Shown here: positions 6,208 through 30,015 of the stretch, in pieces | Numbering within the stretch: the first letter of the stretch is position 1 | How the letters are laid out: each line of letters begins with the position of its first letter | Origin: Desulfitobacterium chlororespirans DSM 11544 | GTDB taxonomy: Bacteria > Bacillota > Desulfitobacteriia > Desulfitobacteriales > Desulfitobacteriaceae | Direction of reading: 5' to 3' | DNA: 64,000 nucleotides | Assembly: GCF_900143285.1 (NCBI RefSeq) | Contig: NZ_FRDN01000012.1 | Coordinates: 74,819-138,818 of the forward strand | Made by a program: the position numbers and the translations under genes | Notes under the pieces: model-generated | The model's input: only the letters and a program-made list of their open reading frames with translations | What the model was told of the DNA's origin: nothing | The model's database searches: none

Positions 6208-6208
6208 G

Positions 6209-10312: not shown

Positions 10313-10446
10313 ATTTTGACGATTGGAAAAAATATTTAAAAAAGTCTGAAAGCTCTCGGAAAAAAGAGGATTTTTTCCACCTTCTGGAGAATACAATTAG
10401 TGTGTTAGGAATATCTGTCAGTGATTCGAACAGGAGGTTGTCGTTC

Positions 10447-10707
10447 ATGGATGTGTTAAAAGTCTCAGCAAAATCAAGTCCAAATTCTGTCGCAGGTGCT
10501 TTGGCTGGTGTGCTCCGTGAGAGGGGAGGTGCGGAGTTGCAGGCCATTGGTGCAGGTGCACTCAATCAAGCTGTAAAGGCCGTAGCTATTGCCAGAGGGT
10601 TTGTTGCCCCGAGCGGAGTCGATCTTGTATGTATTCCTGCTTTCACCGACATACAAATTGACGGGGAAGAGCGAACGGCAATAAAGCTCATTGTAGAACC
10701 ACGCTAA
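10447..10707 (+). CDS. spoVS: Stage V sporulation protein S
   Basis: MDVLKVSAKSSPNSVAGALAGVLRERG, 86 aa, near-identical to SpoVS. Confidence 0.9.
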   Translation: MDVLKVSAKSSPNSVAGALAGVLRERGGAELQAIGAGALNQAVKAVAIARGFVAPSGVDLVCIPAFTDIQIDGEERTAIKLIVEPR

Positions 10708-10814
10708 GAAAGGTTCGGTAGGGAAGTTATCTTTTAAGTGTTCATGGTTTTGAAGCAGGACACCTGTTGGCTTAAAGCGGCAGGTGTTTCTGATTGTGTA
10801 AGGGAGGATAAGGT

Positions 10815-11762: not shown

Positions 11763-11795
11763 TCAGTGTATATTCCCTGGAAAGAGGTAAAGGTC

Positions 11796-12656: not shown

Positions 12657-12695
12657 ATCACTGGAAAGAGGCAATGAGTGGGAGGTAAGGTATTG

Positions 12696-13859
12696 AAAGC
12701 GCGGCGTTTAAGCAGTTTAGGAGCATCTGTATTTACAGAAATGGATGATTTAAGAAAAGAGTTGGAGAAGGCTGGAAAACAGCTGATTAATCTTAGCATC
12801 GGCAGCCCTGACCGCTCCCCCTCCGCAGAGATTCGCAAGGTCTTGGCGGAAGGGGTCCTTGACGGCGGGAGTTATGGCTACACTCTGACCCGGGGGACAG
12901 AGAGTTTTCGGTCAGGATGTGCCCGGTGGTACAAAGAGCGCTTTGGCGTAAATTTGGACCCGGAAAAAGAAGTTCTGCCTTTAATGGGCTCTCAGGACGG
13001 GCTCGCCCATATCTTTTTAGCCCTGTGCGATCCCGGAGATGTGGCTTTAATACCTGATCCGGGATATCCCATCTACACGGCGGGATTAGTCCTGGCCGGA
13101 GGAGAAAAGGTTGCCCTGCCTTTAAGGGAGGAAAACGGCTTTTTGCCGGATCTGTCGGCCATTGAGGATGGGGTGGCACAGGCAGCTAAGATTATGTTTC
13201 TTAATTATCCTAACAACCCCACTGCGGCGGTGGCCCCCTTGTCCTTTTTCGAAGAGGTCGTTGATTTTGCCCGCAAGAACAGGATTGTGGTGTGTCATGA
13301 TGCTGCTTACTCGGAGTTGGCCTTTGACGGTTACCGTCCTGTGAGCTTCCTTCAGGTTCCGGGTGCCAAAGCAATAGGGATCGAATTTCACTCCGTCTCC
13401 AAAACCTACAATTTGGCAGGGGTCAGACTGGGATTTGCAGTGGGCAATGCGGAAATCATCGGGGCCTTGGCTGAGTTGAAATCGAATATCGATTATGGGG
13501 TATTTGAACCTGCCCTGCAGGCCGGTGCTTATGCCCTCAGTGCCTCTCAGGAAAATGTTGAAAAAAACCGCCGGACTTATGAGGAACGGAGAGATATCTG
13601 GGTTAAAGGGTGTGCTCAGGCAGGATGGTTCATGCCCTCGCCCCAAGGCTCCATGTTTATTTGGGCTCCGGTACCCACAGCACAGGATTCCCGCAGCTTT
13701 GCCTTTGCCTTAGCCCGGGAGGCCGGAGTCATTGTCGTCCCCGGTATTGCCTTTGGAGAATACGGGGAAGGATATGTGCGGATCGGCATGGTTCAGGATC
13801 AGGAGGTCCTGAAAGAGGCGGTGCGGCGGGTTCAAGAGTTTCTGGCTGCCCAGGGTTAA
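12696..13859 (+). CDS. PLP-dependent class I aminotransferase (LL-diaminopimelate aminotransferase-like)
   Basis: TTG start 7 nt after gggagg; SIGSPD, SKTYNLAGVR (Lys in SKT). Confidence 0.75.
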   Translation, partial: KARRLSSLGASVFTEMDDLRKELEKAGKQLINLSIGSPDRSPSAEIRKVLAEGVLDGGSYGYTLTRGTESFRSGCARWYKERFGVNLDPEKEVLPLMGSQDGLAHIFLALCDPGDVALIPDPGYPIYTAGLVLAGGEKVALPLREENGFLPDLSAIEDGVAQAAKIMFLNYPNNPTAAVAPLSFFEEVVDFARKNRIVVCHDAAYSELAFDGYRPVSFLQVPGAKAIGIEFHSVSKTYNLAGVRLGFAVGNAEIIGALAELKSNIDYGVFEPALQAGAYALSASQENVEKNRRTYEERRDIWVKGCAQAGWFMPSPQGSMFIWAPVPTAQDSRSFAFALAREAGVIVVPGIAFGEYGEGYVRIGMVQDQEVLKEAVRRVQEFLAAQG

Positions 13860-15576: not shown

Positions 15577-16635
15577 ATGGAACGGCGAAGTGCCCGGTCC
15601 TGCGGCTTATGGATGGGGGAGCTGGCACCTGGATTACATAACGATATCACGGATGTGCCCGGAGTCTTGGTGGGTCATGTTTCCTTAATCAAAGGTTACG
15701 GTCCCCTCATTCCCGGGGTGGGTCCTGTCCGCACCGGCATTACAGCCATACGTCCTCACCCGGGAAATATCTATCGTGAGCCCTGCCAGGCGGGGATTCA
15801 CGTCATGAATGGCTTTGGCAAGTCTCTGGGTGTGCCTTATATCCAGGAGACCGGTTTGCTGAATTCTCCCATTTTCTTAACCAATACCTTAAGTGTCTAT
15901 GACGCGGCCCAAGGAATGCTGACTTATTTGCTGCAGGAAAATCCGGAGATCGGCCATGATGCCCGAACCCCTAATTTGGTGGTTTTTGAATGCGATGACT
16001 CCTATCTGAATGATATCCGTGGCCGTCATGTGAAGCCTTGGGATGGAATTTTAGCTCTGAACCGTGCATCAACGGGGCCGATAGTTCAAGGGAGTGTGGG
16101 GGCCGGAGTAGGGATGTGCTTATTCCAGCTGAAAGGCGGGATTGGCAGTGCTTCACGTATTGTTCCCAGCCAGGGCAAAGAATATAGAATGGGTATGTTG
16201 GCCTTGACCAATTTTGGACATTTAGAGGAGATGCTTATCAACGGTGTTCCGATAGGTTTAATGATGAAGAGGGCTAACCAGCAAAAAATGCTTTGCCAGG
16301 TTCCGGGCTCTCTTATTTTAGTGGGTATGACGGACGCCCCCCTCAGCTGCCGGCAATTGCATATGCTGGCGGTAAGGGCCCCTTTGGGATTAGGCCGGAC
16401 GGGGGGGATATCGCGGATGGGGAGCGGAGAGTTTTGCTTGATGGTCAGCAACACCGGCTTGGAATTTGCAGCTCCGCTCAGTGATTGGGACCTGGACCCC
16501 TTTTTTCAGGCAGCAGTGGAAATAACGGCTGAAAGTATCTGGAATTCTCTGTTCTATGCTACATCGATGGCAGGGCGGGACGGACATCTATGCCAAGCGC
16601 TTCCCATTGACGAAGTATTATCCTGGATGGGCTAA
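15577..16635 (+). CDS. DmpA/OAT-type L-aminopeptidase (peptidase S58 / P1 family)
   Basis: ITDVPGVLVGH signature near the N-terminus; RBS gggggtgg. Confidence 0.75.
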   Translation: MERRSARSCGLWMGELAPGLHNDITDVPGVLVGHVSLIKGYGPLIPGVGPVRTGITAIRPHPGNIYREPCQAGIHVMNGFGKSLGVPYIQETGLLNSPIFLTNTLSVYDAAQGMLTYLLQENPEIGHDARTPNLVVFECDDSYLNDIRGRHVKPWDGILALNRASTGPIVQGSVGAGVGMCLFQLKGGIGSASRIVPSQGKEYRMGMLALTNFGHLEEMLINGVPIGLMMKRANQQKMLCQVPGSLILVGMTDAPLSCRQLHMLAVRAPLGLGRTGGISRMGSGEFCLMVSNTGLEFAAPLSDWDLDPFFQAAVEITAESIWNSLFYATSMAGRDGHLCQALPIDEVLSWMG

Positions 16636-16711
16636 TTTCTCCTGAAGATGGCATGATATTCCTGGTTTGCGCGTAAATATGTAGTGTGACAAAAGTTAAG
16701 GGAGGATCATT

Positions 16712-17947
16712 GTGAATAATTGGCTTGAAATCTGGGAGCAGCATCCGGATGTTTTTATTGCCCAAAACTGGCAGGAGTGCCCTGCTGAAAAAAGAAAAGA
16801 TTTGCGTCTGCCACAGCAGTACAGTTATTTCTTTGGTGGGGAGACTGCATTGCGGGTTGGCATCGTGGCCAGCCAAATTCTGCCGAAAGAAGAGGAGTTT
16901 TTATTAGCCGGCATGCTTTGGGCGAACCGTTTGAGCAATGGGGCACGAACGGTTATCTATTTTATTGCACCTGATTTTTCACCTTTTCTATTGCATGCTT
17001 TAGCAAAAATGGGAGGGCTCATCAATGCCAAGGCTGTGTATTGGCGGGAGCGCTTATCGCCCAGTCTCTATTTGATACCTGAAGCACCTTCAGGTGGTCA
17101 GAAGCGGATTGCGGTTGGTGAACGCCGGCCCAACTGGCTGAAATGGAGGCAGGAATTAAACCCGGTAGCCCAGCACCAACTCTTTGTGGTGAAAGGATTT
17201 TTTGATAAACTTGCCCAACGGGGGGTGCGATGTGAGCTGAAACCCCTGACTATTTCCTATCTGCGGGGGAACATCGAGATTGCTGAGATTAAACGCAAGG
17301 GGAAGAAATTTGAACTGACAACCAAGCTCAAGGGATTGAAACATGATGAAAAGGCTCAGTCCCTTCTGCGTCAAGGCTGGGTGGATGCTTCAGGAGAATT
17401 GAACAGCGAATTCTGTACAGCAATCCTGACAATTTTAGACGATTTAGAGGAGAAGGAGCGCAAAGGGCAGCTCAAGCCGAAAGATCAACTGTCTTTATGG
17501 CTTTATCAAGGGGGCGGGATACTTTCCTCCTTATGGGGGGCGCCCAAAGATTGGCCATGGCTGCCTAAGGATCGAAGTGAATCCTGGATAGCGGAATTGG
17601 GCCAATGGCATTATTTCGAAGGAAACGGCCAAATCAGTGTCATTTGTCCCATCCTGGATAAACCGTTGACACAGGCCAGTCAAGCGATTCTGCTCTCCAG
17701 CGTTTTGGAAAAGAGCACCTTGCTTCATCCTGATAAAACCAAAACCAACACGGCCTGGGATATGCAAATTCATTGGCTTACCTTAAAGGACTTTGAAGAA
17801 GAACTGAGATTGTGGCTTTCCTGGCTAAAGTATCCGGAGAGATATCAGGTGTGGATTTTGCCCAATGATTGGCAAGCAGAAGGCCTTAACGAGCTGGTTT
17901 GCCGGAGTGCCCCCTACCGGGAGAGAATCATTGATGAGTATTCTTAG
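16712..17947 (+). CDS. Hypothetical 411-aa Trp-rich protein, no recognisable domain
   Basis: GTG start after aagggagga; the long ORF has a strong RBS and no homology that I recognise. Confidence 0.5.
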   Translation: MNNWLEIWEQHPDVFIAQNWQECPAEKRKDLRLPQQYSYFFGGETALRVGIVASQILPKEEEFLLAGMLWANRLSNGARTVIYFIAPDFSPFLLHALAKMGGLINAKAVYWRERLSPSLYLIPEAPSGGQKRIAVGERRPNWLKWRQELNPVAQHQLFVVKGFFDKLAQRGVRCELKPLTISYLRGNIEIAEIKRKGKKFELTTKLKGLKHDEKAQSLLRQGWVDASGELNSEFCTAILTILDDLEEKERKGQLKPKDQLSLWLYQGGGILSSLWGAPKDWPWLPKDRSESWIAELGQWHYFEGNGQISVICPILDKPLTQASQAILLSSVLEKSTLLHPDKTKTNTAWDMQIHWLTLKDFEEELRLWLSWLKYPERYQVWILPNDWQAEGLNELVCRSAPYRERIIDEYS

Positions 17948-18138
17948 GCGTTCGGAGAACTCTGACAGCTATAATAACAGTGCAGAACCCCCTGTATACC
18001 GATGAACATCAGGGGGTTCTGCACTGCTTATTCCATGGCGAAGCCATTTGGGATAGTTTTGCTGAACTCAATTAAAAAGTTCTGTAATAAATATTGAATG
18101 TGTTGTATAATTATACAAATTGTATGGAGGAACACACT

Positions 18139-18591
18139 ATGAACTTAAGAAGAGCAAAATTACCGGACGTAGAAGCGATGATGTCGCTTGTTAATCATTT
18201 TGCCGACCAGGGGCTGATGCTGCCGCGGTCACGTAACTCACTCTATGAAGGCCTCAGAGAATTCTTGGTGGTCGAAGAACAGGACAGGATCATCGGCATA
18301 GGCGCTCTGCATATTATCTGGGATGATTTGGCTGAGATACGAACTCTTGCCGTGTTGGAAGGGTATCAGGGGCAAGGGGTAGGCAGAAGCCTCGTTAATG
18401 CTTTATTGACTGATGCCCGAACCATTCTTTGCCCCAGAGTGTTTACTCTGACTTATCAACCTGGTTTTTTTGAACGCTGTGGTTTTATTATGATCAATAA
18501 AGAAGACATGCCCCATAAGGTATGGAAAGACTGCATTCATTGTGTAAAATTTCCTAATTGTGATGAAAACGCCATGATGCTGAACCTGTAA
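18139..18591 (+). CDS. GNAT N-acetyltransferase (ArgA-C-terminal-like)
   Basis: ATG after ggagga; IGIGALHIIWDDLAEIRTLAV..QGQGVGRSL acetyl-CoA binding motif. Confidence 0.8.
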   Translation: MNLRRAKLPDVEAMMSLVNHFADQGLMLPRSRNSLYEGLREFLVVEEQDRIIGIGALHIIWDDLAEIRTLAVLEGYQGQGVGRSLVNALLTDARTILCPRVFTLTYQPGFFERCGFIMINKEDMPHKVWKDCIHCVKFPNCDENAMMLNL

Positions 18592-18810
18592 TCAGGCAAT
18601 CGAAGAGGATTTGCTATGGCAGATTCCCCGGGCAGAGCGGTGTGACAAGGTTCCACTGTCGTCGAGTATCATGCGCAGAAATTTCCATTGTAACTCAAGG
18701 TAAGCAGTGGCTAAATCATGTTCACTTGTACCCTGAGCAATTAAAACCTCTCGGCAAGAAGACTCAAATTCACGAATAAATTCTAGGGCATCCTCATGAG
18801 ATGACAACAT
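18592..18810 (-). CDS. Small hypothetical protein (72-76 aa), convergent and abutting the GNAT gene
   Basis: ORF with possible RBS ggaaggtg; no homology that I recognise. Confidence 0.25.
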   Translation of the reverse strand: MLSSHEDALEFIREFESSCREVLIAQGTSEHDLATAYLELQWKFLRMILDDSGTLSHRSARGICHSKSSSIA

Positions 18811-18991
18811 AACCCATTTCACCTTCCTATTACTTATTCTATTGACAAAGAAAAAATATTTTAGAGAAATCTGTATTATCTTAAGTTGTCTCTATTATAA
18901 AAAATTCTTTCCGTGAAAAGTGTTGTAATTAGGAGAGAACAAGCCGTTTAAATAGATAAAGAATGATGAAAAATAGTGTTTTTGCGTAAAT

Positions 18992-19750
18992 TTATGCCGG
19001 ATGAGTCGTGGGGACCTTGCCGGTTCGCCAAAGAGAAATATCAAAGATACGAATATTCCCCAATAAGTAATGCTTTTTCGCTTGGGAGTAATTCTTCAAC
19101 ATGGCATAACAATCGCCGAGGGCATGGTGAATCGTGGCAGTGTAGCTTAAGGTGAGCAGAAACTGAGTGAACCGATTAGCGCCATTGCAGGGAAACCCGG
19201 ATTTTCTGGATAAAGCCAGGCTTAGTTCGTAAATCCTGATGGCAGCCTGCCATTCATTCATCTGCCGCAGTATATGGCCCAGTACACAAAGCAGAAGCGG
19301 GTCTGAAGTATGGTGAGGGTTATCGTGAACTATCCTTAAGGCATGCCGGGGGCGGCCCTCACGCAGGAGAATGTCGGCAAGGGTTGCACACAAAAGTGGA
19401 TCATGGGTGTTTTGATATTTTTCCAATAAAGCGATAGCCTGTTTCTTTTCATTGAAATAAAAATAAAGCTGACTGGAAAAATGGGAAATTGCTAAGGGTG
19501 TGGAGTCCTGAGTGATTTCCTTTGCCATTTTGCGGGCGGTGATCTTTTTGTCCGGGGTGGGAAAGCTTTTTTTGTGCATCATTAAAAAATAGGCAAGAAG
19601 AAAACCGAGGATAAAGAGCAAGAGCCCGAGCATTGGGCCAAAGCGCCAGCCTAAGATGAGACTGGTCGGGCAAATGAAGATAAGCAAAGAGAAGAAGTAA
19701 TAAAGTTTATAGACATAGATGATTTCCAAATCATATTGGATTTGACGCAT
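18992..19750 (-). CDS. Membrane protein with two N-terminal TM helices and a TPR-like C-terminal domain
   Basis: Hydrophobic N-terminus (FFSLLIFICPTSLILG, LLLFILGFLLAYFLM) followed by helical repeats. Confidence 0.5.
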   Translation of the reverse strand: MRQIQYDLEIIYVYKLYYFFSLLIFICPTSLILGWRFGPMLGLLLFILGFLLAYFLMMHKKSFPTPDKKITARKMAKEITQDSTPLAISHFSSQLYFYFNEKKQAIALLEKYQNTHDPLLCATLADILLREGRPRHALRIVHDNPHHTSDPLLLCVLGHILRQMNEWQAAIRIYELSLALSRKSGFPCNGANRFTQFLLTLSYTATIHHALGDCYAMLKNYSQAKKHYLLGNIRIFDISLWRTGKVPTTHPA

Positions 19751-20068: not shown

Positions 20069-20097
20069 TTGACTAAAAGACCTGTTCCATAGATAAT
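20069..20097 (+). promoter_or_regulatory. Sigma-A-like promoter (ttgact-N17-gataat) with a ~190-nt leader to the sucC-like gene
   Basis: ttgact 20069-20074; gataat 20092-20097. Confidence 0.4.
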
Positions 20098-20289
20098 AAG
20101 ATTATACAAAGAATAATGAAACTGAGTTTCGATGAGTGAAACAACAACCTTTGTATTCCTTATCCTATCCATGGTGCTCAAACTAAAATCATTGATTTAA
20201 AGTAGAGTCAAGGGAAGGGGTGAGAGACTTCTTTAGTCAGGTAAAAAAAGTCTCTGGTCAAGAAAAAACAGTATGGAAGGGATTTATGC

Positions 20290-21567
20290 ATGGCAAGATT
20301 TCTAGAGTATCAAGGTAAAGAATGGCTTGCAAAAGCAGGAATGCCGGTACCTAAGGGTCGTCCGGCATCGACCCCCGAAGAAGCAAGAGAAGCCGCTGAA
20401 TGGATTGGCGGTCCTGTTGCGGTAAAAGGTCAGGTACAAGCGGGTGGTCGTGGTAAAGCTGGGATTGTTAAACTGGTTAACACTCCCGATGAGGCAGCAG
20501 CAGCTGCTGCTGAAATTCTCTCCAAAACAGTAAAAGGCTTACCGGTGCGCAAAGTTCTTGTAGAAGAGAAATTGGATATCAAAAAAGAGTTCTATTGCTC
20601 TTTTGTCGTTAATGGAGCAAGGGAAGCCCGTTCACCAATGCTTATGTTCAGCATTGAAGGCGGTATGGATATCGAAAGTGTTCCGGAAGAGAAATTACTG
20701 AAGATCAATGTGGACCCGATCAATGGACTGCAGACTTATGATGCAGTGGATTTGGCTGCTAAAGCAGGAATAGCTCCGGAAGAATTAACGAAGTTTGCTA
20801 AATTTTTGACGAAACTTTCTCAAACTTATAAGAAATACGACTGTATGACTCTTGAGATCAACCCCTTCGTGATGACAGGGAATGGCAATCTCATCTGTGC
20901 CGACTGCAAGATGGAAATCGACAACAGTTCCGTAGGCCGTCATCCCGAGTTTGGCTTTGACATCGCCCGTGACCTGCCTGGTGAGCCCACAGAGTTGGAC
21001 TACATCGGTTGGAGCATTGAGGAAACGGATGCCCGTGGCACAGGCTTCCTCATGAATATGGGATACGATGAAGTCAGCCCCGGCTATGTTGGCTATCATC
21101 CCATCGGCGGCGGTTCGGCCATGATGGGCTTGGATGCTCTCAATCAAGTGGGTCTGAAGCCGGCCAACTATGCCGACACCAGCGGCAACCCCGTAGCTTC
21201 CAAAATTTATCGTGTTGCCAAATCGGTGCTTTCCCAGCCTAATATCGACGGCTACCTCCTTGGGGGCTTTATGATGGCCAACCAAGAACAATGGCATCAT
21301 GCTCATGCTATAGTCAAAGTGCTTCGTGAAATCCTCCCCACCCAAAAACCAGGATTGCCTTGTGTGCTCCTTCTTTGTGGTAACCGGGAAGATGAGTCTC
21401 TGGAAATTCTCAAAACCGGACTGGCTGATCTGATGACCAGTGATGGACCGGGGAAAAGAATCGAGATTTACGGAAAAGAATATGTAACCGATACGAAGTT
21501 CATTGGTGAAAGACTCTTAGCTCTGAGCAAAGACTATCGGGCTGAGAAAGAAGCTCAAGGAAAGTAG
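20290..21567 (+). CDS. ADP-forming acyl-CoA synthetase beta subunit (SucC/MtkA-like, ATP-grasp)
   Basis: MARFLEYQGKEWLAKAGMPVP N-terminus typical of the SucC ATP-grasp domain; C-terminal ligase-CoA domain. Confidence 0.8.
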   Translation: MARFLEYQGKEWLAKAGMPVPKGRPASTPEEAREAAEWIGGPVAVKGQVQAGGRGKAGIVKLVNTPDEAAAAAAEILSKTVKGLPVRKVLVEEKLDIKKEFYCSFVVNGAREARSPMLMFSIEGGMDIESVPEEKLLKINVDPINGLQTYDAVDLAAKAGIAPEELTKFAKFLTKLSQTYKKYDCMTLEINPFVMTGNGNLICADCKMEIDNSSVGRHPEFGFDIARDLPGEPTELDYIGWSIEETDARGTGFLMNMGYDEVSPGYVGYHPIGGGSAMMGLDALNQVGLKPANYADTSGNPVASKIYRVAKSVLSQPNIDGYLLGGFMMANQEQWHHAHAIVKVLREILPTQKPGLPCVLLLCGNREDESLEILKTGLADLMTSDGPGKRIEIYGKEYVTDTKFIGERLLALSKDYRAEKEAQGK

Positions 21568-21576
21568 GGAAATAAC

Positions 21577-21864
21577 GTGCTGGAATTCGCTGAAAAAAGT
21601 TGCAAAATCACAATCGATACCAGCAAGTGTGATGCGTGCGAAACAAAAGCATGTGCAGACGCCTGCAAAAAGTATGCGAGAGGTTTGCTGGGCATAGATG
21701 ATCAAGGCAGAGCTTCAGTGGCTCACCGGACTGAGGAAGAAGTTCTTCGTCTCGGCACAGAATGTCTGGCCTGTGAATTTGCCTGTAAATTCCGCGGCAA
21801 GGATGCTATCTCGATTGAAGTTCCTGTAGCCGGTCTGGACGCATACTTGGCAAAACGCGCATAA
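21577..21864 (+). CDS. Cys-rich 95-aa protein (C-x2-C-x4-C-x3-C ... C-x2-C-x3-C), putative Fe-S or metal-binding mini-protein
   Basis: Eight Cys in two clusters; 10 nt after the sucC-like stop. Confidence 0.5.
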   Translation: MLEFAEKSCKITIDTSKCDACETKACADACKKYARGLLGIDDQGRASVAHRTEEEVLRLGTECLACEFACKFRGKDAISIEVPVAGLDAYLAKRA

Positions 21865-21944
21865 TCACAGGATCGATTGAAAGACTAACTCTATAGATAG
21901 GTTACACTGGGTAAACCAGCAATTTGTTTAAATGAGGGATAAGA

Positions 21945-22841
21945 ATGGGCATTTTGATCAACAAAGAGACCAAAGTGGTTGTCCAGGGAATTACCGGACG
22001 AGAAGGCTCGGTGCGGACAAAATATATGAAAGACTATGGTACGAATCTGATCGGCGGCACAAGTCCCGGAAAAATGGGGCAGGAGATTTACGGTGTTCCG
22101 GTGTTCAATACCGTCAAGGAGATTGTCCGCGAACAAGGTGACATTGATTTCAGTGTTATCTTCGTACCGGGAAGTGCTTTAAAGACAGCTGTCATGGAAG
22201 CTGCCGATGCAGGAGTTAAAAACATTATTCCTTGCGTAGAAGGTACTCCTATTCATGACATTATGGAAATGATCGCCTATGCGAAAGGGAAAGGTTCAAG
22301 ATTGATTGGACCGGGTTCCATTGGTATTCTCACACCGGGAGAAGCTGTCGTCGGCTGGCTGGGCGGCAACGTGGAGTGGGCTAATAAGTTTTTCCAAAAA
22401 GGCCATATCGGTGTATTTTCACGCAGTGGCGGTCAATCAGGTACCATTCCTTGGGTGCTTAGAGAAGGCGGCTTCGGGGTCAGCACCGTTATTCATACCG
22501 GAACAGAGCCGGTGCTTGGCACCTCCATGGCCGATCTGTTACCCTTCTTCGAGGAAGATCCCGATACTCATGGCGTAGCTGTCTACGCAGAAATCGGCGG
22601 CACCCAGGAAGAAGAATGTGCGGAAGTTATTGCCGCCGGCAAGTTTACAAAGCCTTTTGTCATCTATGTGGCTGGTGCTTGGGCACCTGAAGGTCAACGC
22701 TTCTCTCATGCCTCCAATATCGTTGAGCGTGGACGCGGTTCGGCCAAGAGCAAGATGGAAGCAATCACCAAGGCTGGTGGCTTTGTAGCGGAAAGACCGA
22801 CAGATATTCCGTTGATCCTTAAGGAAAAGCTGGGTAAATAA
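21945..22841 (+). CDS. ADP-forming acyl-CoA synthetase alpha subunit (SucD/MtkB-like, CoA-binding, phosphohistidine)
   Basis: KVVVQGITGREG CoA-binding motif; SHASNIVERG equals the GHAGAI His loop. Confidence 0.8.
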   Translation: MGILINKETKVVVQGITGREGSVRTKYMKDYGTNLIGGTSPGKMGQEIYGVPVFNTVKEIVREQGDIDFSVIFVPGSALKTAVMEAADAGVKNIIPCVEGTPIHDIMEMIAYAKGKGSRLIGPGSIGILTPGEAVVGWLGGNVEWANKFFQKGHIGVFSRSGGQSGTIPWVLREGGFGVSTVIHTGTEPVLGTSMADLLPFFEEDPDTHGVAVYAEIGGTQEEECAEVIAAGKFTKPFVIYVAGAWAPEGQRFSHASNIVERGRGSAKSKMEAITKAGGFVAERPTDIPLILKEKLGK

Positions 22842-22862
22842 GTTCGAATTATTCACCGCAAA

Positions 22863-22905
22863 CCATTCCGGTATAGACGGTATAGCCCCGTCTATACCGG
22901 AATGG
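22863..22905. repeat. Perfect 18-bp-stem palindrome (ccattccggtatagacgg / ccgtctataccggaatgg) with no T-run
   Basis: Read directly from the sequence; a second 12-bp palindrome pair lies at 22919-22930 / 22974-22985. Confidence 0.6.
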
Positions 22906-23078
22906 GGAACATAAAGTCGGTTATTCGATGACTTAGCGTCACTGAGTGGCGTTCAGATTCAGTGGCGGTCAGCCATCGAATAACCATCAAATAACTGGCG
23001 GGCATCCGCTGATTCACTTCGCAACTAGGAGCAAATGCTCTTAGAAATATTATTAAATTATTAGGGGGTATATCTACC

Positions 23079-23966
23079 ATGGCTGTTATGAGATCCGTTA
23101 TGTACATTCCCGGAAACAATCCTAAAATGGTGGCTAAAGCACCTGAAATTCCTGCCGACATCATTACCTTCGATTTAGAGGATGCTGTACCACCCGCGGA
23201 AAAAGAAGCAGCTCGTCAGATCGTAAGAGAGAATTTAGAATATGGTGCCAAAGGCGGCGCCCAAGTATTTGTTCGTCTCAATAACTGGGAAACCGGTTTA
23301 ACCAATGATGACCTGGAAGCCGTCGTTTGGCCCGGTCTCCATGGCGTTACCCTGGCAAAAACCGGTTGTGCCGCAGACGTACAACGTCTGGAGTGGAAAC
23401 TGGAAGAGCTGGAAATGCGCCGCGGAATTCCTGTGGGAACCGTTAAAATCTCCATGCTTCTGGAAACCGCTAAAGGTATTGCCAATGCTGAAGAATGCTG
23501 CTTAGCCAGCAAGCGCAATGTCAATGCTATCTTTGGTGCTGTAGACTATTGCCGTGACATGCGCGTTAAAATCACCAATGAAGCTGTTGAACAGCAATAT
23601 GGCCGTGCTAAAGTGGGCGTAGCCTGCCGCGCTGCCGGAATCGTTGCTATCGATGCTCCTTTCGTTGATTATGCCAATATCCCTGCCTTCGAAAAGAATG
23701 TTGCCGAAGGTAAGCAAATGGGTTATGAAGGCCGCATGATCATTCATCCAGGACAAGTTGAACCTTCCAACAGAATGTATGCTCCGGATCCTGCCGATGT
23801 TAAATGGGCAAATGACGTCGTAAAAGTCTTTGAAGAAGAAGGTCTGGCCAAAGGCAAAGCTGCCGTTTCCTTAAATGGAAAAATGGTCGACACCCCTGTT
23901 TATCTCAATGCCAAAGATATCTTAGCTTCTCAAGCTGAAATTGATGCTAAAAACGCCGGCAAATAA
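23079..23966 (+). CDS. HpcH/HpaI-CitE family acyl-CoA lyase (malyl-CoA/citramalyl-CoA/citryl-CoA lyase-like)
   Basis: VMYIPGNNPKM..ITFDLEDAV N-terminal motif of the CitE/Mcl family. Confidence 0.8.
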   Translation: MAVMRSVMYIPGNNPKMVAKAPEIPADIITFDLEDAVPPAEKEAARQIVRENLEYGAKGGAQVFVRLNNWETGLTNDDLEAVVWPGLHGVTLAKTGCAADVQRLEWKLEELEMRRGIPVGTVKISMLLETAKGIANAEECCLASKRNVNAIFGAVDYCRDMRVKITNEAVEQQYGRAKVGVACRAAGIVAIDAPFVDYANIPAFEKNVAEGKQMGYEGRMIIHPGQVEPSNRMYAPDPADVKWANDVVKVFEEEGLAKGKAAVSLNGKMVDTPVYLNAKDILASQAEIDAKNAGK

Positions 23967-24150
23967 ACCGTCATAAACATGCTGTTTCAAGCGTAGATTT
24001 GAATAGGGCGGGTCGCTTCTTAGGAAGCGGCCGCCCATATTGAAGAACTGCGAAACACTGTTTCATTATATGTAAGCGTTGCTGATTTGTCATACATTTT
24101 CAGGTAGAACATATACTATCCTTTAATCGAAAATGAGAGGGGATGTCACG

Positions 24151-25407
24151 ATGACTCGTATTAAAAACCTGCGTGAAGAAGCTTTAGAATTTCACAAAGT
24201 GCAGCCGGGTAAGCTGGAAGTTCGTGTTACCGTTCCGGCCCAAGACCGGGATGACCTCACACTTGCTTATTCTCCCGGCGTTGCGGAACCTGTCAAGGAA
24301 ATTGCCGCCGATCTGGAAAACCTCGATATCTACACCAATCACGCCAACTATGTCAGCATCGTTTCCAACGGAACAGCTATTCTAGGTCTCGGTGACCTGG
24401 GCGCAGCGGCTTCCATGCCGGTTATGGAAGGTAAATCACTCCTCTTCAAAGCATTTGGGGATGTTGACGCCTTTCCTCTTTGCGTAAACACAACCGATGT
24501 GGATAAAATTGTCGAGATTGTTGAATTAACCTCACCTACCTTTGGTGGTGTTAACTTAGAAGATATCAAAGCTCCCGAATGCTTTGAAATCGAAGAAAAA
24601 CTTAAAGCACGCGGTATTTTCAAAGGACCGATTTTCCATGATGACCAACATGGTACAGCTGTTGTTACCTTGGCCGGCTTAGTCAATGCCCTTAAAGTCG
24701 TAGGCAAGAAAATCGAAGACATTAAAGTCGTTGCCAATGGTGCGGGTGCAGCCGGTATCGCGATCATTAAGCTTCTCATGAGCATGGGCTTGAAAAACGT
24801 GATCATGTGCGATACTAAAGGAGCGATTTACGAAGGTCGTACAGCAGGTATGAATCCTTGGAAAGAAGAAATCGCTAAAGCAACCAACCCTGAGAAATTC
24901 AGCGGCGATCTTGCCGGTGCTTTGGTTGGTGCCGATGCCTTCATCGGAATTTCCGCGGCTAATGTTCTCAATGAAGACATGATCCGTTCCATGGCTAAAG
25001 ATCCTATCGTCTTCTGCCAGGCTAATCCCATACCGGAAATCTGGCCGATCGAAAGAGCGTTTGAGGCCGGTGCCAAAGTTATTTCCACCGGACGCTCTGA
25101 CGTGATCAACCAGATCAATAACGTGCTGGCCTTCCCGGGAATGTTTCGCGGAGCGATTGATGTGCGGGCCACCGATATCAACGATGCTATGAAAGTTGCT
25201 GCTGCCTATGCTATCGCCGGTATTGTCAAGGATGAAGAACTCAGTGCCGATTATATCATTCCCAGCACCTTCAATCCGGAAGTTGCTCCTGCCGTAGCGG
25301 CCGCAGTCGCTAAAGCAGCCATAGATTCCGGCATTGCCAGACGCCCCATGGATCCTCAGGAAGTTGCTGATGGACTTAAAAAGAGATTGGCAAACCAATA
25401 TAAATAA
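24151..25407 (+). CDS. NAD(P)-dependent malic enzyme (malate dehydrogenase, oxaloacetate-decarboxylating)
   Basis: ATG after gagagggga; TLAYSPGVAEP, GNHANYVSIVSNGTAILGLGDLG motifs. Confidence 0.9.
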   Translation: MTRIKNLREEALEFHKVQPGKLEVRVTVPAQDRDDLTLAYSPGVAEPVKEIAADLENLDIYTNHANYVSIVSNGTAILGLGDLGAAASMPVMEGKSLLFKAFGDVDAFPLCVNTTDVDKIVEIVELTSPTFGGVNLEDIKAPECFEIEEKLKARGIFKGPIFHDDQHGTAVVTLAGLVNALKVVGKKIEDIKVVANGAGAAGIAIIKLLMSMGLKNVIMCDTKGAIYEGRTAGMNPWKEEIAKATNPEKFSGDLAGALVGADAFIGISAANVLNEDMIRSMAKDPIVFCQANPIPEIWPIERAFEAGAKVISTGRSDVINQINNVLAFPGMFRGAIDVRATDINDAMKVAAAYAIAGIVKDEELSADYIIPSTFNPEVAPAVAAAVAKAAIDSGIARRPMDPQEVADGLKKRLANQYK

Positions 25408-25457
25408 GAGAATATTTCTTGATTTTTTCATAAACCACCATAACCTAAAACCTTTGA

Positions 25458-25499
25458 GCAAGGAAGAGATGGGTTCACACCATCTTTTCCTTGCTTTTT
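25458..25499 (+). terminator. Intrinsic terminator after the malic enzyme gene
   Basis: gcaaggaagagatgg / ccatcttttccttgc 15-bp stem plus T5. Confidence 0.65.
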
Positions 25500-25651
25500 C
25501 CTATCCAAAGACAATTTATGTTGAATAAATTTTAGAAAGACATTGAAATTTTCTGTATTTTGAGGTAACCTATTGGCATGGTGGCCTGACCAAAAATACT
25601 GTATGTAGGGCCCCGAGTTTTTAGAGAGAGAATGAAGAAGGGGTGTGCCTG

Positions 25652-26227
25652 ATGGAAGACTTGAATCTCTTATATGAGCGTTTTCAGACGAAGCTCCAAG
25701 CTGTGTCTGGCGAGAGTCATCGTGTAAAAACTCTCAAAGAGGCTGAGGAGCTTATTGCTCAAATCATGAAAGAAAAGGGAATTGAAAGCGTAGCAATGGT
25801 GAATTCTCCCATGGCTGAAGCGATGAACTTGCCAGAGAAGCTTTCAGCTCACGGGGTAACAGTATATATGGAGCGCTATCCGGAAGTTACTCCTACGGTC
25901 GGTGCGGGGATCACAGAGGTGAAATGGGCTGTTGCTGAATTAGGGACCTTGGTTCAATATGCGGAAGATGTGAATGAACGCCTATGTTCCTCATTTACTC
26001 CCATACATATAGCCTTAGTTCAAACATCGGCTCTGTTGCCGAATCTTATGACTGCTCTGGCTACTGTTCATAACGAACCCAGAATTCCGGGATTTGTTGG
26101 TTTTATCACAGGTCCCAGCCGGACTTCGGATATTGAACGGGTCCTGACCATCGGCGTTCACGGCCCTGAGCAGCTGGTGGCCGTATTTGTGGATGAACAG
26201 GCAGGGGAGGGTGTAGCCAATGGCTAA
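25652..26227 (+). CDS. lutC: LUD-domain protein (LutC/YkgG-like)
   Basis: ATG 8 nt after gaagaagggg; LUD-domain length and pattern; overlaps the next gene by 8 nt. Confidence 0.65.
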   Translation: MEDLNLLYERFQTKLQAVSGESHRVKTLKEAEELIAQIMKEKGIESVAMVNSPMAEAMNLPEKLSAHGVTVYMERYPEVTPTVGAGITEVKWAVAELGTLVQYAEDVNERLCSSFTPIHIALVQTSALLPNLMTALATVHNEPRIPGFVGFITGPSRTSDIERVLTIGVHGPEQLVAVFVDEQAGEGVANG

Positions 26228-28373
26228 TGCGCATTTTAAACAAGAAATTGAGAATGCACTGGAGAATGATATCCTTAGAGGGGCATTAGGCCGTTTCGGG
26301 GATGTCTATGGGAAAAACCGGGAACAAGCTTACCAAGGGTATGATTTTCCGGCCCTGCGGGAAAAGGTTGTTGAAGTAAAATCCTATGCCGCCGAGCATC
26401 TGGATGAGATGATTGAGCAATTCGAAAAGGCTGCCACTGCGCGGGGGGCTAAGGTTTTTCATGCCGCAACAGGTGATGATGCCAAGCAATATATTATCGA
26501 GCTGGCCAAACAGCAGAAAGTTAAAAATATTGTCAAATCCAAATCCATGGCTTCCGAAGAAATTCATCTCAATGCTGCTCTGCTTAAAGAAGGCTTTGAT
26601 GTCCAGGAAACGGATTTAGGGGAATGGATCGTCCAGTTAGCAGGGCAGAGACCTTCCCACATGGTTATGCCGGCTATCCATATGACCAAAGAGCAGGTTG
26701 CGGACACCTTTAATAATAATCTGAGCTATACCAGCGATCCGGTGATTGCTAAATTGGTGAAGACGGCCCGCCAGGAAATGCGCAAAAAGTTCGTGGAGGC
26801 GGATATGGGCATTTCGGGGGCCAACATTGCGGTAGCTGAAACCGGCACCTTGATGATGATGACCAATGAAGGAAATGCCCGCTTAACGTCTACCTGGCCC
26901 CGTGTCCATGTTTTCCTGGTCGGCTTAGAGAAATTTGTCCCGAACTTTGAAGATGCGGGATATATTCTGCAGACCCTGCCCCGGAATGGCACAGCTCAGC
27001 AGCTTACCAGTTATGTAACCATGATCACCGGTCCTAATCCCACTTATTATCCCGACGGTTCCATAGAAGATAAAGAATTTCATATTATTCTTATGGATAA
27101 TGGCCGGCGCAAAATGTATGCCGATGAGCAGTTCAAACAAGTGTTCCAATGTATCCGCTGTGCTGCCTGCTTAAATGTTTGCCCGGCTTTCCAACTGGTG
27201 GGCGGACATGTTTACGGACATATTTATACCGGGGGTATCGGCACCATTTTGACCGCTTTCCTTAATTCGGAAAAGGATGCCGAGAATCCGCAAAACCTCT
27301 GTCTCCAATGCGGCAAATGTACGGAAGTATGTGCCGGTAAACTGGACATTCCGGGAATGATCCTGGAGATTCGCAATCGCATCGGTGATCAAAAGGGCTT
27401 GCCCATGACTCCGAAATTCATCCTGGATGTGGTCTCTAACCGACGCCTCTTCCACTCTTTATTGCGTGTGGCATCGAAAGCCCAGCTGCCTTTTTCCAAA
27501 GGTCAGCCCACCATTCGTCATTTGCCTTTCTTCTTGTCAGGACTGACGGAGAAGAGAAGCCTGCCGACGATTGCCGATGTTCCTTTCCGGGATGTGATCA
27601 GAAAGATGAACCAGGATGTTAAGAACCCTAAAGGCACCATTGCCTTTTTTGGCGGTTGTCTGGTGGACTTTGTCTATCCCAAAATCGGTGAAGGGGTGGT
27701 CAGGGTTTTAAATGAAAAAGGTTATAAGGTTACCTTCCCGGAAGGTCAGTCCTGCTGTGGAGCTCCCGCATCTTACATGGGCGACCGCAAAAATGCCCGC
27801 AAATCGGCAATTATGAACATCGAAGCCATGGATGCCGAAAAGGTGGATTATGTGGTTTCGGCTTGCCCCACCTGTACTCATGCCCTGATTGATAGTTTCA
27901 AAGAGCTCCTGGCCGACGATCCGGCTCTGCTCAAACGCGCTGAAGAACTCAGTAAGAAATCCATGGACTTCGCCAAGCTTCTGACGGTCTTAGGCGGCCT
28001 TGAGGAAGGGGGAGACGGAGTACCCTTAAAAGTTACTTATCATGATTCCTGCCACTTAAGACGGAAAATGGGGGTCATTGAGGAGCCACGGAATATACTC
28101 TCCAATATTAAAGGCGTGGATCTGGTGGAGATGAATGAGTCAGATCGTTGCTGTGGGTTTGCAGGCTCTTATTCCATCAAATTCCCGGAAATGTCCGGAC
28201 CGATTCTGGAAAGAAAACTTCGCAATATTGAAGCCACTGGGGCGGATGTTGTGGCTGTGGATTGCCCAGGCTGCCTGATGCAGATTAATGGAGGATTGGA
28301 TCAAACAGACCTGAAGGTCAAGGTAAAGCACACCGCAGAGTTGCTCCTGGAAAAACGCCAAAAGCAAAAATAA
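26220..28373 (+). CDS. Fused LutB-LutA-like iron-sulfur oxidoreductase (LUD domain, 2x[4Fe-4S], 2x CCG Cys-rich domains)
   Basis: CIRCAACLNVCP and CLQCGKCTEVC ferredoxin motifs, then GGCLVDF..SCCGAP and HDSCHLRR..CCGFAGSYS CCG domains (GlcF/HdrD-like). Confidence 0.75.
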   Translation: MANAHFKQEIENALENDILRGALGRFGDVYGKNREQAYQGYDFPALREKVVEVKSYAAEHLDEMIEQFEKAATARGAKVFHAATGDDAKQYIIELAKQQKVKNIVKSKSMASEEIHLNAALLKEGFDVQETDLGEWIVQLAGQRPSHMVMPAIHMTKEQVADTFNNNLSYTSDPVIAKLVKTARQEMRKKFVEADMGISGANIAVAETGTLMMMTNEGNARLTSTWPRVHVFLVGLEKFVPNFEDAGYILQTLPRNGTAQQLTSYVTMITGPNPTYYPDGSIEDKEFHIILMDNGRRKMYADEQFKQVFQCIRCAACLNVCPAFQLVGGHVYGHIYTGGIGTILTAFLNSEKDAENPQNLCLQCGKCTEVCAGKLDIPGMILEIRNRIGDQKGLPMTPKFILDVVSNRRLFHSLLRVASKAQLPFSKGQPTIRHLPFFLSGLTEKRSLPTIADVPFRDVIRKMNQDVKNPKGTIAFFGGCLVDFVYPKIGEGVVRVLNEKGYKVTFPEGQSCCGAPASYMGDRKNARKSAIMNIEAMDAEKVDYVVSACPTCTHALIDSFKELLADDPALLKRAEELSKKSMDFAKLLTVLGGLEEGGDGVPLKVTYHDSCHLRRKMGVIEEPRNILSNIKGVDLVEMNESDRCCGFAGSYSIKFPEMSGPILERKLRNIEATGADVVAVDCPGCLMQINGGLDQTDLKVKVKHTAELLLEKRQKQK

Positions 28374-28520: not shown

Positions 28521-29216
28521 ATGATTAAAGCTATTCTTTTTGACTTAGATGGAACCTTAACCTTAATGGATCAGGAAGAATTCATGAAAAACTACATAGG
28601 ACTTTTGGCTCCGCGATTTAAACAGTATATTTTCCCTGATAAATTCGCCAAGCAGCTCAACCGTTCTACTGAGGTGATGATCAAACAACCTCAGGAGGGT
28701 AAAACCAACCTGCAAACTTTTTTTGCTGATTTTACCAAAGCGACCGGGTTGACTTATCATACATTATGGCCGGTTTTTGAAGCCTTCTACACCACCGACT
28801 TTCCGGCTTTACGTCTTTTAGTCAAGTTAAATCCCCATGGCAAAGAGGCTGTAGAAACTGCTTTACAAAAGGGGTATACGGTAGCTATTGCGGCCAACCC
28901 GGTTATGCCGTTGCTGGCCATAGAAGAGCGGATTCGTTGGGCAGAGTTGTCTCCCCAAATCTTTTCTGTCATTCCGTCTATAGAATCCTTTCATTACTGC
29001 AAACCTCACACGGGCTTCTATGCCGAGTTAGCCGAGAATCTTGGCCTGCAGCCCAGTGAATGCCTCATGGTTGGCAATCATCCCGTAGAGGATGTGGCTG
29101 CTCAGGAGATTGGCATGCAGACATTTTATGTAGGTGAGCCAGTGGAGGGGATTCAGACAACCTACCAAGGGGATATTTCTGATCTGACCGGCAAGATTCG
29201 GGAAGGAAGTCTCTAG
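28521..29216 (+). CDS. HAD-superfamily hydrolase
   Basis: MIKAILFDLDGTL motif I. Confidence 0.8.
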   Translation: MIKAILFDLDGTLTLMDQEEFMKNYIGLLAPRFKQYIFPDKFAKQLNRSTEVMIKQPQEGKTNLQTFFADFTKATGLTYHTLWPVFEAFYTTDFPALRLLVKLNPHGKEAVETALQKGYTVAIAANPVMPLLAIEERIRWAELSPQIFSVIPSIESFHYCKPHTGFYAELAENLGLQPSECLMVGNHPVEDVAAQEIGMQTFYVGEPVEGIQTTYQGDISDLTGKIREGSL

Positions 29217-29241: not shown

Positions 29242-29694
29242 ATGGGAGTATTTGTTCAGCAGGTGCCGTCAAGGGTCTTGAATACTGCAGAATCAAATCA
29301 TGTGCCTAAACATATCCGGGGTGTCCTTGAAGAGTTTTTAAGGAGATATAGCGAGTTGCAGAGAGTAAGGCATCGGGAAATCGCCTTCTTGATGGCTGTT
29401 ATTGTGTTCGGTTTTCTCAGCCTTTGGGGCATGCTCTTTCCCAAGTACCCGGCGATTTCTTTCTGGCTCAACAGCCTGCTGCTGGTGGGATTTATTCTGA
29501 CCCTCGTGCAGTATGTTAAAGTGCGCAGGGTATCACAGCATGTTTATATCAATGTTCATATCCTCTATCATCATCTGTTAGGGAAGCTGGAAGTTGGCTT
29601 TTGTGAGCATGAGTCTCCTTGTCAATGTGCTGAGACTTTCCGCAAATACATGTGGAACCGGTACGGGATTTCATTTTATGGGAATTCCATCTAG
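29242..29694 (+). CDS. Hypothetical membrane protein (two central TM helices)
   Basis: ORF with RBS gtgagggag; hydrophobic core FLMAVIVFGFLSLWGMLF. Confidence 0.4.
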   Translation: MGVFVQQVPSRVLNTAESNHVPKHIRGVLEEFLRRYSELQRVRHREIAFLMAVIVFGFLSLWGMLFPKYPAISFWLNSLLLVGFILTLVQYVKVRRVSQHVYINVHILYHHLLGKLEVGFCEHESPCQCAETFRKYMWNRYGISFYGNSI

Positions 29695-29808
29695 TCTTAC
29701 TTATTAATGGAATGATGAAAAAGGGAATGGACATAATATAAAAGATATTCTCTCAGAGGATAAAAATCAAAAGTTAATCTAATGAAACCATGAAAGGGAG
29801 GAATTATG

Positions 29809-29973
29809 ATGCAAAAGTATGTATGCACCATCTGTCAGTATGTCTATGATCCTGAAGTAGGAGATCCGGATTCCGGAGTAGCTCCTGGCACAGCTTTTGA
29901 GAATATCCCCGAGGATTGGGTATGTCCTACTTGCGGTGTAAGCAAAGATCAATTTGAAGTATACGAAGGATAA
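29809..29973 (+). CDS. Rubredoxin (54 aa), absent from the ORF track
   Basis: [20 protein letters not shown]...[16 protein letters not shown]: two CxxC knuckles; RBS gggagg 7 nt upstream. Confidence 0.85.
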
Positions 29974-29990
29974 TGTCCCCGTATAAAAAA

Positions 29991-30015
29991 ACCTGTCAAA
30001 TGTGACAGGTTTTTT
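29991..30015 (+). terminator. Terminator after the rubredoxin gene (palindrome acctgtcacatttgacaggt plus T6; A-run upstream, possibly bidirectional)
   Basis: Read directly from the sequence. Confidence 0.7.

Follow-up and report, generated by a model that had tools for sequence, protein, structure and literature searches.

A stretch of 64,000 nucleotides from the genome of Desulfitobacterium chlororespirans DSM 11544 (contig NZ_FRDN01000012.1, positions 74,819 to 138,818; the whole stretch is called the window below, and coordinates are counted from its first nucleotide) holds a run of genes that very probably includes the previously unassigned gene set of the anaerobic malyl-CoA pathway. Open reading frame (ORF) calling combined with Pfam and NCBIfam models yields seven consecutive plus-strand genes. 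They encode a SucC-like ligase beta subunit (20290-21567, 425 residues), a ferredoxin-like small protein of 95 residues with 7 Cys (21577-21864), a SucD-like alpha subunit (21945-22841, 298 residues), a CitE/HpcH-type lyase (23079-23966, 295 residues), a malic enzyme of about 420 residues (24133-25407, with a likely start at 24151, which is the gene caller's choice and has a good ribosome-binding site), a LutC-like LUD-domain protein (25643-26227, 194 residues, PF02589) and an LdhH-type LutB-LutA fusion (26220-28373, 717 residues) composed of a LUD domain, Fer4_8 and two CCG domains. Upstream on the same strand lies a sigma-70-type promoter-like site, TTGACT-17-GATAAT (20069-20097), which agrees with the consensus at 10 of 12 scanned positions and does not vary in either hexamer when aligned with four related loci of the Desulfitobacterium clade. 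Behind the malic enzyme gene the plus strand carries an intrinsic terminator (25456-25496) with a 17-bp stem, a T-run and a folding energy of -27.9 kcal/mol, which closes a five-gene operon. This terminator is genuine. In seven of eight related loci (L007-L010, L039, L045 and L075) a strong hairpin of -18.6 to -30 kcal/mol with a T-rich tail, differing in sequence, stands in the same place, and the best hairpin behind the malic enzyme gene of L012 is much weaker (-13.6 kcal/mol). An earlier reading made from the letters of this DNA alone (the original prediction) had named the seven ORFs, the promoter-like site and the terminator, all of which were recovered in place. It had also put all seven genes on one promoter; the common direction stands, but the single unit does not, because the terminator splits the seven genes, which are more aptly taken as an operon of five and a separate lutC-ldhH unit.

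How widely is this arrangement conserved? One genome per species was scanned with a profile of the small protein; 300 genomes hold relatives of it, and 80 loci were retrieved. Co-occurrence was counted by tblastn across 85 loci, the denominators being those loci that have room to see the feature; tblastn was preferred because longest-ORF calling drops the small gene in high-GC loci, where antisense ORFs win. A SucC-like gene precedes the small gene in 76 of 76 loci and a SucD-like gene follows it in 83 of 83. The gene for the CitE-like lyase adjoins the ligase genes in 67 of 75 loci, a malic enzyme gene is present in 36 of the 48 that are fully covered, and a gene for a GlcD-like or LdhH-type dehydrogenase is adjacent in 21 of 48. 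The conserved unit is five genes, encoding beta subunit, small protein, alpha subunit, lyase and malic enzyme, and as a cluster these are strongly conserved in relatives. The closest relatives of the window locus are found in Desulfitobacterium species, with 94% identity of the beta subunit to that of Desulfitobacterium sp. THU1, and across the Desulfitobacteriaceae the module occupies a syntenic chromosomal position. The cysteine-rich ORF that the original prediction had noticed between the ligase genes is a real gene, conserved and fixed in position, and the orthologue of a relative has been seen by mass spectrometry. The Lut genes, which had been drawn into the pathway, fared differently: their adjacency is borne out, but they are a variable add-on behind the terminator and not members of the conserved core, as LutC and LdhH adjoin the module in two lineages alone (11 loci), the window's clade and a Peptococcaceae/Gracilibacter group.

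The acid-CoA ligase and the ferredoxin-like small protein

The beta subunit matches PF08442 (ATP-grasp_2) with 177 bits and the alpha subunit matches PF02629/PF00549 (CoA_binding/Ligase_CoA), and both stay below the cut-offs of the curated models for named enzymes. The beta subunit scores 245 on the SucC equivalog NF001913 (cut-off 370) and 178 on the MtkA equivalog NF010647 (cut-off 604), the alpha subunit 267 on the SucD equivalog NF004230 (cut-off 336). Identity of the beta subunit to annotated MtkA is 29-32%. In a neighbour-joining tree (380 columns, 100 bootstraps) with SucC and annotated MtkA references from public records, the SucC and MtkA references form one clade with 100% support; the window's beta subunit lies in a separate clade (98%) that joins the nearest of the fused forms described below at 96%, and all beta forms associated with the ferredoxin-like module are united at 78%. 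The tree also includes one unrelated ORF ('clade_L076') as a long basal branch, of which the quoted supports are independent. That the pair does not group with SucC agrees with the original prediction, which had taken it to be something other than a housekeeping enzyme. The catalytic His of the alpha subunit is kept. Of 74 alpha subunits of the clade that were examined, 71 have RFSHAS[NAS]I as the surrounding loop (RFSHASNI in the window); a search with this motif found no match in the remaining three, and all SucD/MtkB references read GHAGAI at the phospho-His loop. Among the matches in the PDB, succinyl-CoA synthetase (SCS) reaches 209/257 bits against 139/161 bits for the citryl-CoA synthetase CcsAB (beta subunit versus 6hxq, 139), and the beta subunit additionally has weak Pfam matches to Citrate_bind and Citrate_synth_N.

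Judged by these comparisons of sequence, the ligase is neither SucCD nor the MtkAB of the serine cycle and represents a separate lineage of the SucCD superfamily, defined by its Fe-S-type module. Its chemistry is probably the same as that of MtkAB (malate/malyl-CoA). The earlier suggestion of an MtkAB-type ligase is thereby divided: it probably holds for the reaction but fails for membership in the MtkAB family. From genomic context, host physiology and proteomics we infer that the ligase interconverts malate, CoA and ATP with malyl-CoA, ADP and Pi.

What kind of protein is encoded between the two ligase genes? The small protein is 64-91% identical across phyla and has seven invariant Cys residues (C18, C21, C26, C30, C63, C66 and C70). 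It matches no Pfam family above threshold, with sub-threshold matches to Fer4 in 25 of 28 members. The AlphaFold2 (AF2) model, which has a predicted local distance difference test score (pLDDT) of 90, shows a beta-alpha-beta-beta-alpha-beta layout, and its best matches in the PDB are small ferredoxins (1vjw, 4id8 and 1siz), all of them weak with E values of about 0.03 and template-modelling (TM) scores of 0.45-0.5. A 2x[4Fe-4S] ferredoxin of bacterial type has two CxxCxxCxxxC motifs with 8 Cys in all. The first Cys motif of the small protein is C-x2-C-x4-C-x3-C. The second is a canonical CxxCxxCxxxC in 21 of 32 sequences of the wider family, and its first Cys is replaced by Gly60 in the window's clade, which would therefore have one complete four-Cys site and one three-Cys site.

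A search of 1.84 billion representative sequences with a hidden Markov model (HMM) returned 134 relatives of the small protein at E<=0.001. At least ten of the distant relatives, 470-541 residues long, consist of a full-length beta subunit that carries the small-protein domain at its C-terminus, the beta subunits of these fusions being 21-42% identical to that of the window. Such natural fusions ('Rosetta-stone' proteins) speak for the small protein as a ligase subunit, and from the fusions, the abundance of the protein and its co-regulation with the ligase genes we propose it as the third subunit. It is predicted to bind Fe-S and to have a putative role within the ligase. The AF2 model of one fusion (P0313, predicted TM score 0.60) has both domains modelled confidently, joined by a low-confidence or disordered linker of about 25 residues, and carries no information on docking. 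Genomic context was looked up for four fusions; most lie on contigs of 2-6 kb, and L097 alone is informative. There (4613-9829) the beta::ferredoxin-like fusion and an alpha subunit are encoded amid genes for PrpD, a citrate-synthase-like protein of 270 residues, aconitase subunits and PrpF. This setting hints at a related ligase/lyase system that acts on citrate, methylcitrate or acids of that kind, and the wider family probably handles other hydroxy-polycarboxylates.

It could be imagined that the Fe-S subunit gates substrate-level phosphorylation according to redox state or oxygen. By analogy with aconitase, the open iron of a three-Cys cluster could instead bind the 2-hydroxy-dicarboxylate substrate. 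A third option is that the small subunit could dock the CitE-type lyase and channel the labile malyl-CoA; if this were true, ligase and lyase would together be an 'ATP-forming malate synthase' complex, comparable to an ATP-citrate lyase working backwards. The strongest form of the idea, which makes the small protein an obligatory Fe-S subunit, with a role unlike that in any known SucCD-type enzyme, in an unrecognised lineage of ADP-forming acid-CoA ligases, is put forward tentatively and is on balance doubtful.

Proposed glyoxylate metabolism and the competing explanations

The lyase is a full-length PF03328 (HpcH_HpaI) protein with 154 bits. Its best curated-model match is the CitE equivalog TIGR01588, on which it scores 203 against a cut-off of 443, and on the RipC/Ccl model it reaches 138 bits against a cut-off of 375. 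The best match in the PDB, malyl-CoA lyase of M. extorquens (5ugr, 126 bits), is barely above the 'CitE' of D. radiodurans (124) and human CLYBL (117). Residues R66, E129 and D156, read from the sequence, are candidates for the conserved Arg, Glu and Asp that serve as metal and oxyanion residues in the family. The substrate of the lyase is not fixed by sequence alone; context, host physiology and induction point to glyoxylate, and the protein is proposed to be a malyl-CoA lyase that condenses glyoxylate and acetyl-CoA to malyl-CoA. The malic enzyme is of the small type (PF00390 and PF03949, malic and Malic_M) and matches the model of the NADP-dependent subfamily with 403 bits.

The genes at 20290-25407 can with good confidence be read as an operon for the 'malyl-CoA pathway', by which glyoxylate would be oxidised anaerobically with a yield of ATP. 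In this pathway the lyase would condense glyoxylate with acetyl-CoA to (S)-malyl-CoA, and the three-component ligase, working in the thioester-cleaving direction, would convert malyl-CoA, ADP and Pi via a phosphohistidine to malate, CoA and ATP, a substrate-level phosphorylation. Malic enzyme would then oxidise malate with NAD(P)+ to pyruvate and CO2, and pyruvate:ferredoxin oxidoreductase, encoded elsewhere, would regenerate acetyl-CoA with release of a second CO2, so that the net conversion would be glyoxylate to 2 CO2, 4[H] and 1 ATP. The separately terminated lutC-ldhH pair may supply glyoxylate from glycolate. The biochemical literature reports the lyase, ligase and malic enzyme steps as activities in organisms that carry the module; for the gene products of the window we infer the substrates of lyase and ligase and the direction of flux.

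Several carriers of the module are known for their use of these C2 acids. Syntrophobotulus glycolicus DSM 8271 (L002, CP002547), whose protein is 86-87% identical to the window's beta subunit, has the five-gene core in syntenic order. This organism grows on glyoxylate only, or on glycolate in syntrophy (S. glycolicus genome paper), and its glyoxylate metabolism was proposed on enzymatic grounds to proceed via malyl-CoA (Friedrich & Schink); the genome paper does not assign the pathway genes. The core is likewise syntenic in Moorella thermoacetica, and the module occurs in five other Moorella/Neomoorella species (Moorella loci L003, L041, L044, L046, L049 and L054). Moorella sp. HUC22-1 degrades glyoxylate via malyl-CoA with synthesis of ATP (Sakai et al. 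2008, as reported in papers citing it). Acididesulfobacillus acetoxydans, which has the module (L033), can use glycolate and malate for growth, but citrate does not support it. A metagenome-assembled genome (MAG) of Desulfofustis (L070) combines the module with GlcD- and GlcF-like genes, and Desulfofustis glycolicus is a strict anaerobe growing on glycolate. Further links to glycolate oxidation and to pyruvate come from other neighbourhoods: the gene order in Desulfosporosinus is IclR-GlcF-GlcE-GlcD-cupin-module, MAGs of Desulfatiglandaceae and Desulfobacteraceae have GlcD/GlcD/GlcF-like genes 3' of the lyase gene, and genes for pyruvate:ferredoxin oxidoreductase adjoin the module in L005, L025, L052 and L076.

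A published proteome adds data on expression. Ca. Dichloromethanomonas elyunquensis strain RM, which converts dichloroacetate to glyoxylate (PMC8092247), carries the complete module (L040, contig000006, 8717-13690). The consecutive genes PROKKA_18948-18952 were matched to L040 by identical gene order and by the seventh gene after malic enzyme, which encodes an ATP-binding cassette (ABC) ATPase, as does PROKKA_18959 (NikO). All five products are significantly higher (p<0.05 each) on dichloroacetate (DCA) than on dichloromethane, by 6.7-13.4-fold (PMC8092247, Table S2). Log2 fold changes and log2 intensities on DCA are 3.74 and 20.9 for PROKKA_18948 (annotated as succinyl-CoA ligase beta), 3.55 and 23.2 for PROKKA_18949 (hypothetical, with no database hit), 3.06 and 22.1 for PROKKA_18950 (succinyl-CoA ligase alpha), 3.50 and 23.8 for PROKKA_18951 (citrate lyase beta) and 2.75 and 22.6 for PROKKA_18952 (malic enzyme) (PMC8092247). 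On a linear scale the beta subunit rises 13-fold, the small protein 11.7-fold, the lyase 11-fold and malic enzyme 6.7-fold. The lyase orthologue PROKKA_18951 is among the most abundant proteins on dichloroacetate, and the small-protein orthologue PROKKA_18949 was identified with 13 peptides and 77% coverage (PMC8092247). The authors of the study, who do not discuss the induction of the five proteins, state that strain RM is without canonical malyl-CoA lyase genes and credit a glyoxylate carboligase route, the carboligase having a log2 intensity of 20.65, at or above which all module proteins lie (PMC8092247). The complete module in L040 conflicts with this statement, as does Table S2 of the same paper.

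Some of the data weigh against reading the operon as a glyoxylate pathway. In strain RM the glyoxylate carboligase route rises far more than the module, 272-fold (PMC8092247). The beta subunit scores better on the SucC than on the MtkA model, and the lyase is 36% identical to E. coli CitE versus 30-31% to the Mcl of the serine cycle. In some loci, moreover, the ligase trio is found without lyase and malic enzyme. Among Desulfosporosinus acididurans and relatives (L030, L034 and L037), the trio of L030 adjoins genes for a sigma-54 PrpR-type activator and an SSF symporter, homologues of both of which occur in L034 and L037; in L042 it adjoins genes for a GntP permease and a class-V aminotransferase, with homologues of both in L056 and of the aminotransferase in L061. 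To judge from these neighbours, the lyase-free loci represent a second use of the same three-subunit ligase. Trios without a lyase, taken together with the fused relatives in the PrpD/aconitase cluster, suggest that the wider ligase family probably acts on more than one acid.

Could the enzymes of the operon serve another purpose? One possibility is that they run in the opposite direction, activating malate to malyl-CoA and cleaving this to glyoxylate and acetyl-CoA in a serine-cycle-like manner for assimilation or for the supply of glycine and C2 units. The lyase and ligase reactions are both reversible, and in methylotroph clusters (L087-L089) MtkAB/Mcl run in this direction, paired with a class-V aminotransferase such as is also encoded in some of the trio loci. 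Such a flux would have to compete with a malic enzyme of the same operon that pulls malate towards pyruvate, and the neighbouring glycolate-oxidase-like genes produce glyoxylate rather than consume it. The pathway measured in carriers of the module forms ATP from glyoxylate and acetyl-CoA, and the module is up when glyoxylate is the substrate (PMC8092247). Operation in reverse is accordingly rated as unlikely. The original prediction had considered both directions, and the one it gave first, from glyoxylate and acetyl-CoA through malyl-CoA to malate with ATP formation and on to pyruvate, is supported by synteny, neighbouring genes and induction.

ATP-dependent cleavage of citrate, with the ligase as citryl-CoA synthetase, the lyase as a CitE-type citryl-CoA lyase (a 'split' ATP-citrate lyase) and malic enzyme acting on the oxaloacetate formed, is very unlikely. 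The score of the lyase on the CitE model is the best that it attains on any curated model and its identity to E. coli CitE is 36%, but 203 bits are far under the cut-off of 443. E. coli citE sits between citD and citF, and the gene families that recur around the module in the 85 loci include neither of the two; on both counts the lyase, which the original prediction had set apart from the beta subunit of citrate lyase, differs from the latter. Known citryl-CoA lyases resemble citrate synthase and not CitE. The beta subunit does have its weak Citrate_bind and Citrate_synth_N matches and its 139 bits with 6hxq, and one distant fused relative is encoded beside a short citrate-synthase-like gene and aconitase. 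The carriers speak against citrate, as S. glycolicus uses glyoxylate and glycolate only and A. acetoxydans fails to grow on citrate, and the module is linked to genes for GlcDEF-like dehydrogenases and induced on a substrate that yields glyoxylate.

An itaconate/citramalate-type route, with (S)-citramalyl-CoA, beta-methylmalyl-CoA or a different 3-hydroxyacyl-CoA as substrate in place of malyl-CoA, is also highly improbable. Promiscuity is known from lyases of the CitE superfamily, CLYBL and Mcl among them (PMC3832036), and the lyase does match the RipC/Ccl model with 138 bits, a score which remains under the cut-off of 375. Genes for itaconate CoA-transferase or hydratase are not found close by, host range and induction indicate glyoxylate, and malic enzyme would be without a role since cleavage of citramalyl-CoA already gives pyruvate. 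Scarcely credible, finally, is a divergent housekeeping succinyl-CoA synthetase with lyase, malic enzyme and Lut genes as unrelated neighbours: this is the public annotation, and the top curated-model and PDB matches are SCS, but the pair stays under the SucC and SucD cut-offs, lies outside the SucC+MtkA clade, has an altered phospho-His loop, a putatively obligatory extra subunit and tight linkage to a lyase, is co-induced with lyase and malic enzyme, and has no TCA-cycle (tricarboxylic acid cycle) genes near it.

For the glyoxylate pathway, the source of glyoxylate in D. chlororespirans may lie in the adjoining lutC-ldhH unit. The LdhH-type protein scores 1106 bits on NF045670 (cut-off 800), the model for quinone-linked L-lactate dehydrogenase LdhH, and its gene occupies the position that is held by GlcDEF-like genes in Desulfosporosinus and Desulfobacterota. 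The LutC/LdhH pair is read as a quinone-linked 2-hydroxyacid dehydrogenase and may oxidise either glycolate to glyoxylate or L-lactate to pyruvate; the odds that it is a glycolate dehydrogenase feeding the module appear about even. As a separate observation, 3' of the module in S. glycolicus (L002, from 16028-19639 onward) there are genes for [FeFe]-hydrogenase large subunits, a multi-4Fe-4S protein and an NrfD-type membrane subunit, which are candidates for the membrane-bound hydrogenase of reversed electron transport in glycolate oxidation.

Known systems compared and significance

The pathway itself is long known biochemically and is not new. The anaerobic malyl-CoA pathway of S. glycolicus and Moorella sp. 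HUC22-1 has the same reaction sequence as that proposed here, and the work on it defined activities, not genes. A literature search outside subscription journals found no publication that assigns genes to it. As far as the literature searched shows, the new elements are the gene assignment, the separate ligase lineage bearing an Fe-S-type module, and the induction contained in an already published proteome.

Similar in design is the MtkAB/Mcl system, where an ADP-forming SucCD-superfamily ligase of two subunits has a CitE-superfamily CoA-ester lyase encoded next to it and the intermediates are probably the same. However, mtkA and mtkB abut with no gene between them, whereas the window pair is split by the small-protein gene; MtkA groups with SucC, which the window beta subunit does not; the phospho-His loop is GHAGA there and SHAS[NAS] in the window's clade; and MtkAB/Mcl serve an assimilation that consumes ATP, in contrast to the ATP-yielding catabolism proposed here. 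The glc operon of E. coli also couples glycolate dehydrogenase (GlcDEF) to the condensation of glyoxylate and acetyl-CoA to malate, but its malate synthase G hydrolyses the thioester, whereas the division into lyase and ligase would recover the energy as ATP. Citryl-CoA synthetase with citryl-CoA lyase (CCS/CCL) and ATP-citrate lyase resemble the window system in that a hydroxy-acyl-CoA is handled jointly by a SucCD-superfamily ligase and a C-C lyase; they differ in having a lyase of citrate-synthase type and no ferredoxin-like module, the window lyase being of CitE/HpcH type. The LutC-LdhH pair finds its counterpart in the LdhGH/LutABC systems of Desulfovibrio type, in which a protein of the LdhH model is likewise paired with a small LUD-domain subunit, but the window genes lie beside a glyoxylate module and not beside lactate permease, pta, ack or por.

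Of the dissolved organic carbon that phototrophs release, glycolate is one of the largest fluxes, and glyoxylate is the product of the dehalogenation of haloacetates. The enzymatic basis on which strict anaerobes obtain ATP from the two C2 acids has been known for some 30 years, since the 1990s. With the gene assignment the pathway would become recognisable in genomes and metagenomes, the module's relatives extending over about 300 species of Bacillota, Desulfobacterota, Chloroflexota and Actinomycetota, and widespread misannotations as 'succinyl-CoA synthetase / citrate lyase beta' could be corrected. The conclusion that Ca. D. elyunquensis has no malyl-CoA route (PMC8092247) needs another look. 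Furthermore, those who design synthetic C1/C2 metabolism and photorespiration bypasses, and who now borrow MtkAB/Mcl, may take an interest in a replacement for malate synthase that yields ATP.

Regulatory and flanking features

The 192-nt leader between promoter and beta subunit gene gave no Rfam match at E<=1, so that no known RNA element or riboswitch was found in it. Just 3' of the -10 box lies an exact palindrome, TGAAAC-N3-GTTTC (20117-20131), which is a candidate operator and is kept in the leader alignment of related loci. The core pattern GAAAC-N3-GTTTC recurs at 21 more Desulfitobacteriaceae loci of the Desulfitobacterium/Desulfosporosinus type, where it precedes the SucC-like gene, against a background of 0.03 per kb. 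A pattern search found a second copy at 24051-24065, upstream of the malic enzyme gene, where the pattern is present in three close relatives as well. From this recurrence GAAAC-N3-GTTTC is likely to be the operator of some regulator. An IclR-type gene adjoins the module in Desulfosporosinus. Between the lyase and malic enzyme genes there is furthermore a GC-rich hairpin without a T-tract, GGGCGGGTCGCTTC-TTAG-GAAGCGGCCGCCC (24007-24037), that may act in the processing or stability of the mRNA or as a partial attenuator.

Directly behind the LdhH gene follow three co-directional plus-strand genes of uncertain membership, encoding a hydrolase of the haloacid dehalogenase (HAD) family (28521-29216), a 150-residue protein matching no Pfam or NCBIfam family (29242-29694) and a rubredoxin (29806-29973); a bidirectional terminator (29986-30015) lies 3' of the rubredoxin gene. 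The genes for the HAD hydrolase and the 150-residue protein are found with the module in its four closest relatives alone (L007-L010). The hydrolase was considered as a type II haloacid dehalogenase or a phosphoglycolate phosphatase and assigned to neither, its matches to both being weak and sub-threshold; either activity would generate glycolate or glyoxylate. In L010 and L012 a tRNA-like sequence (GGGGGTATAGCTCAGCTGGGAGAGCGC...), absent from the window, is found about 600 bp upstream of the SucC-like gene. Upstream of the module in the window, at 16712-17947, lies the gene of a conserved 411-residue protein that is without a Pfam or NCBIfam family and keeps its syntenic place in 18 loci.

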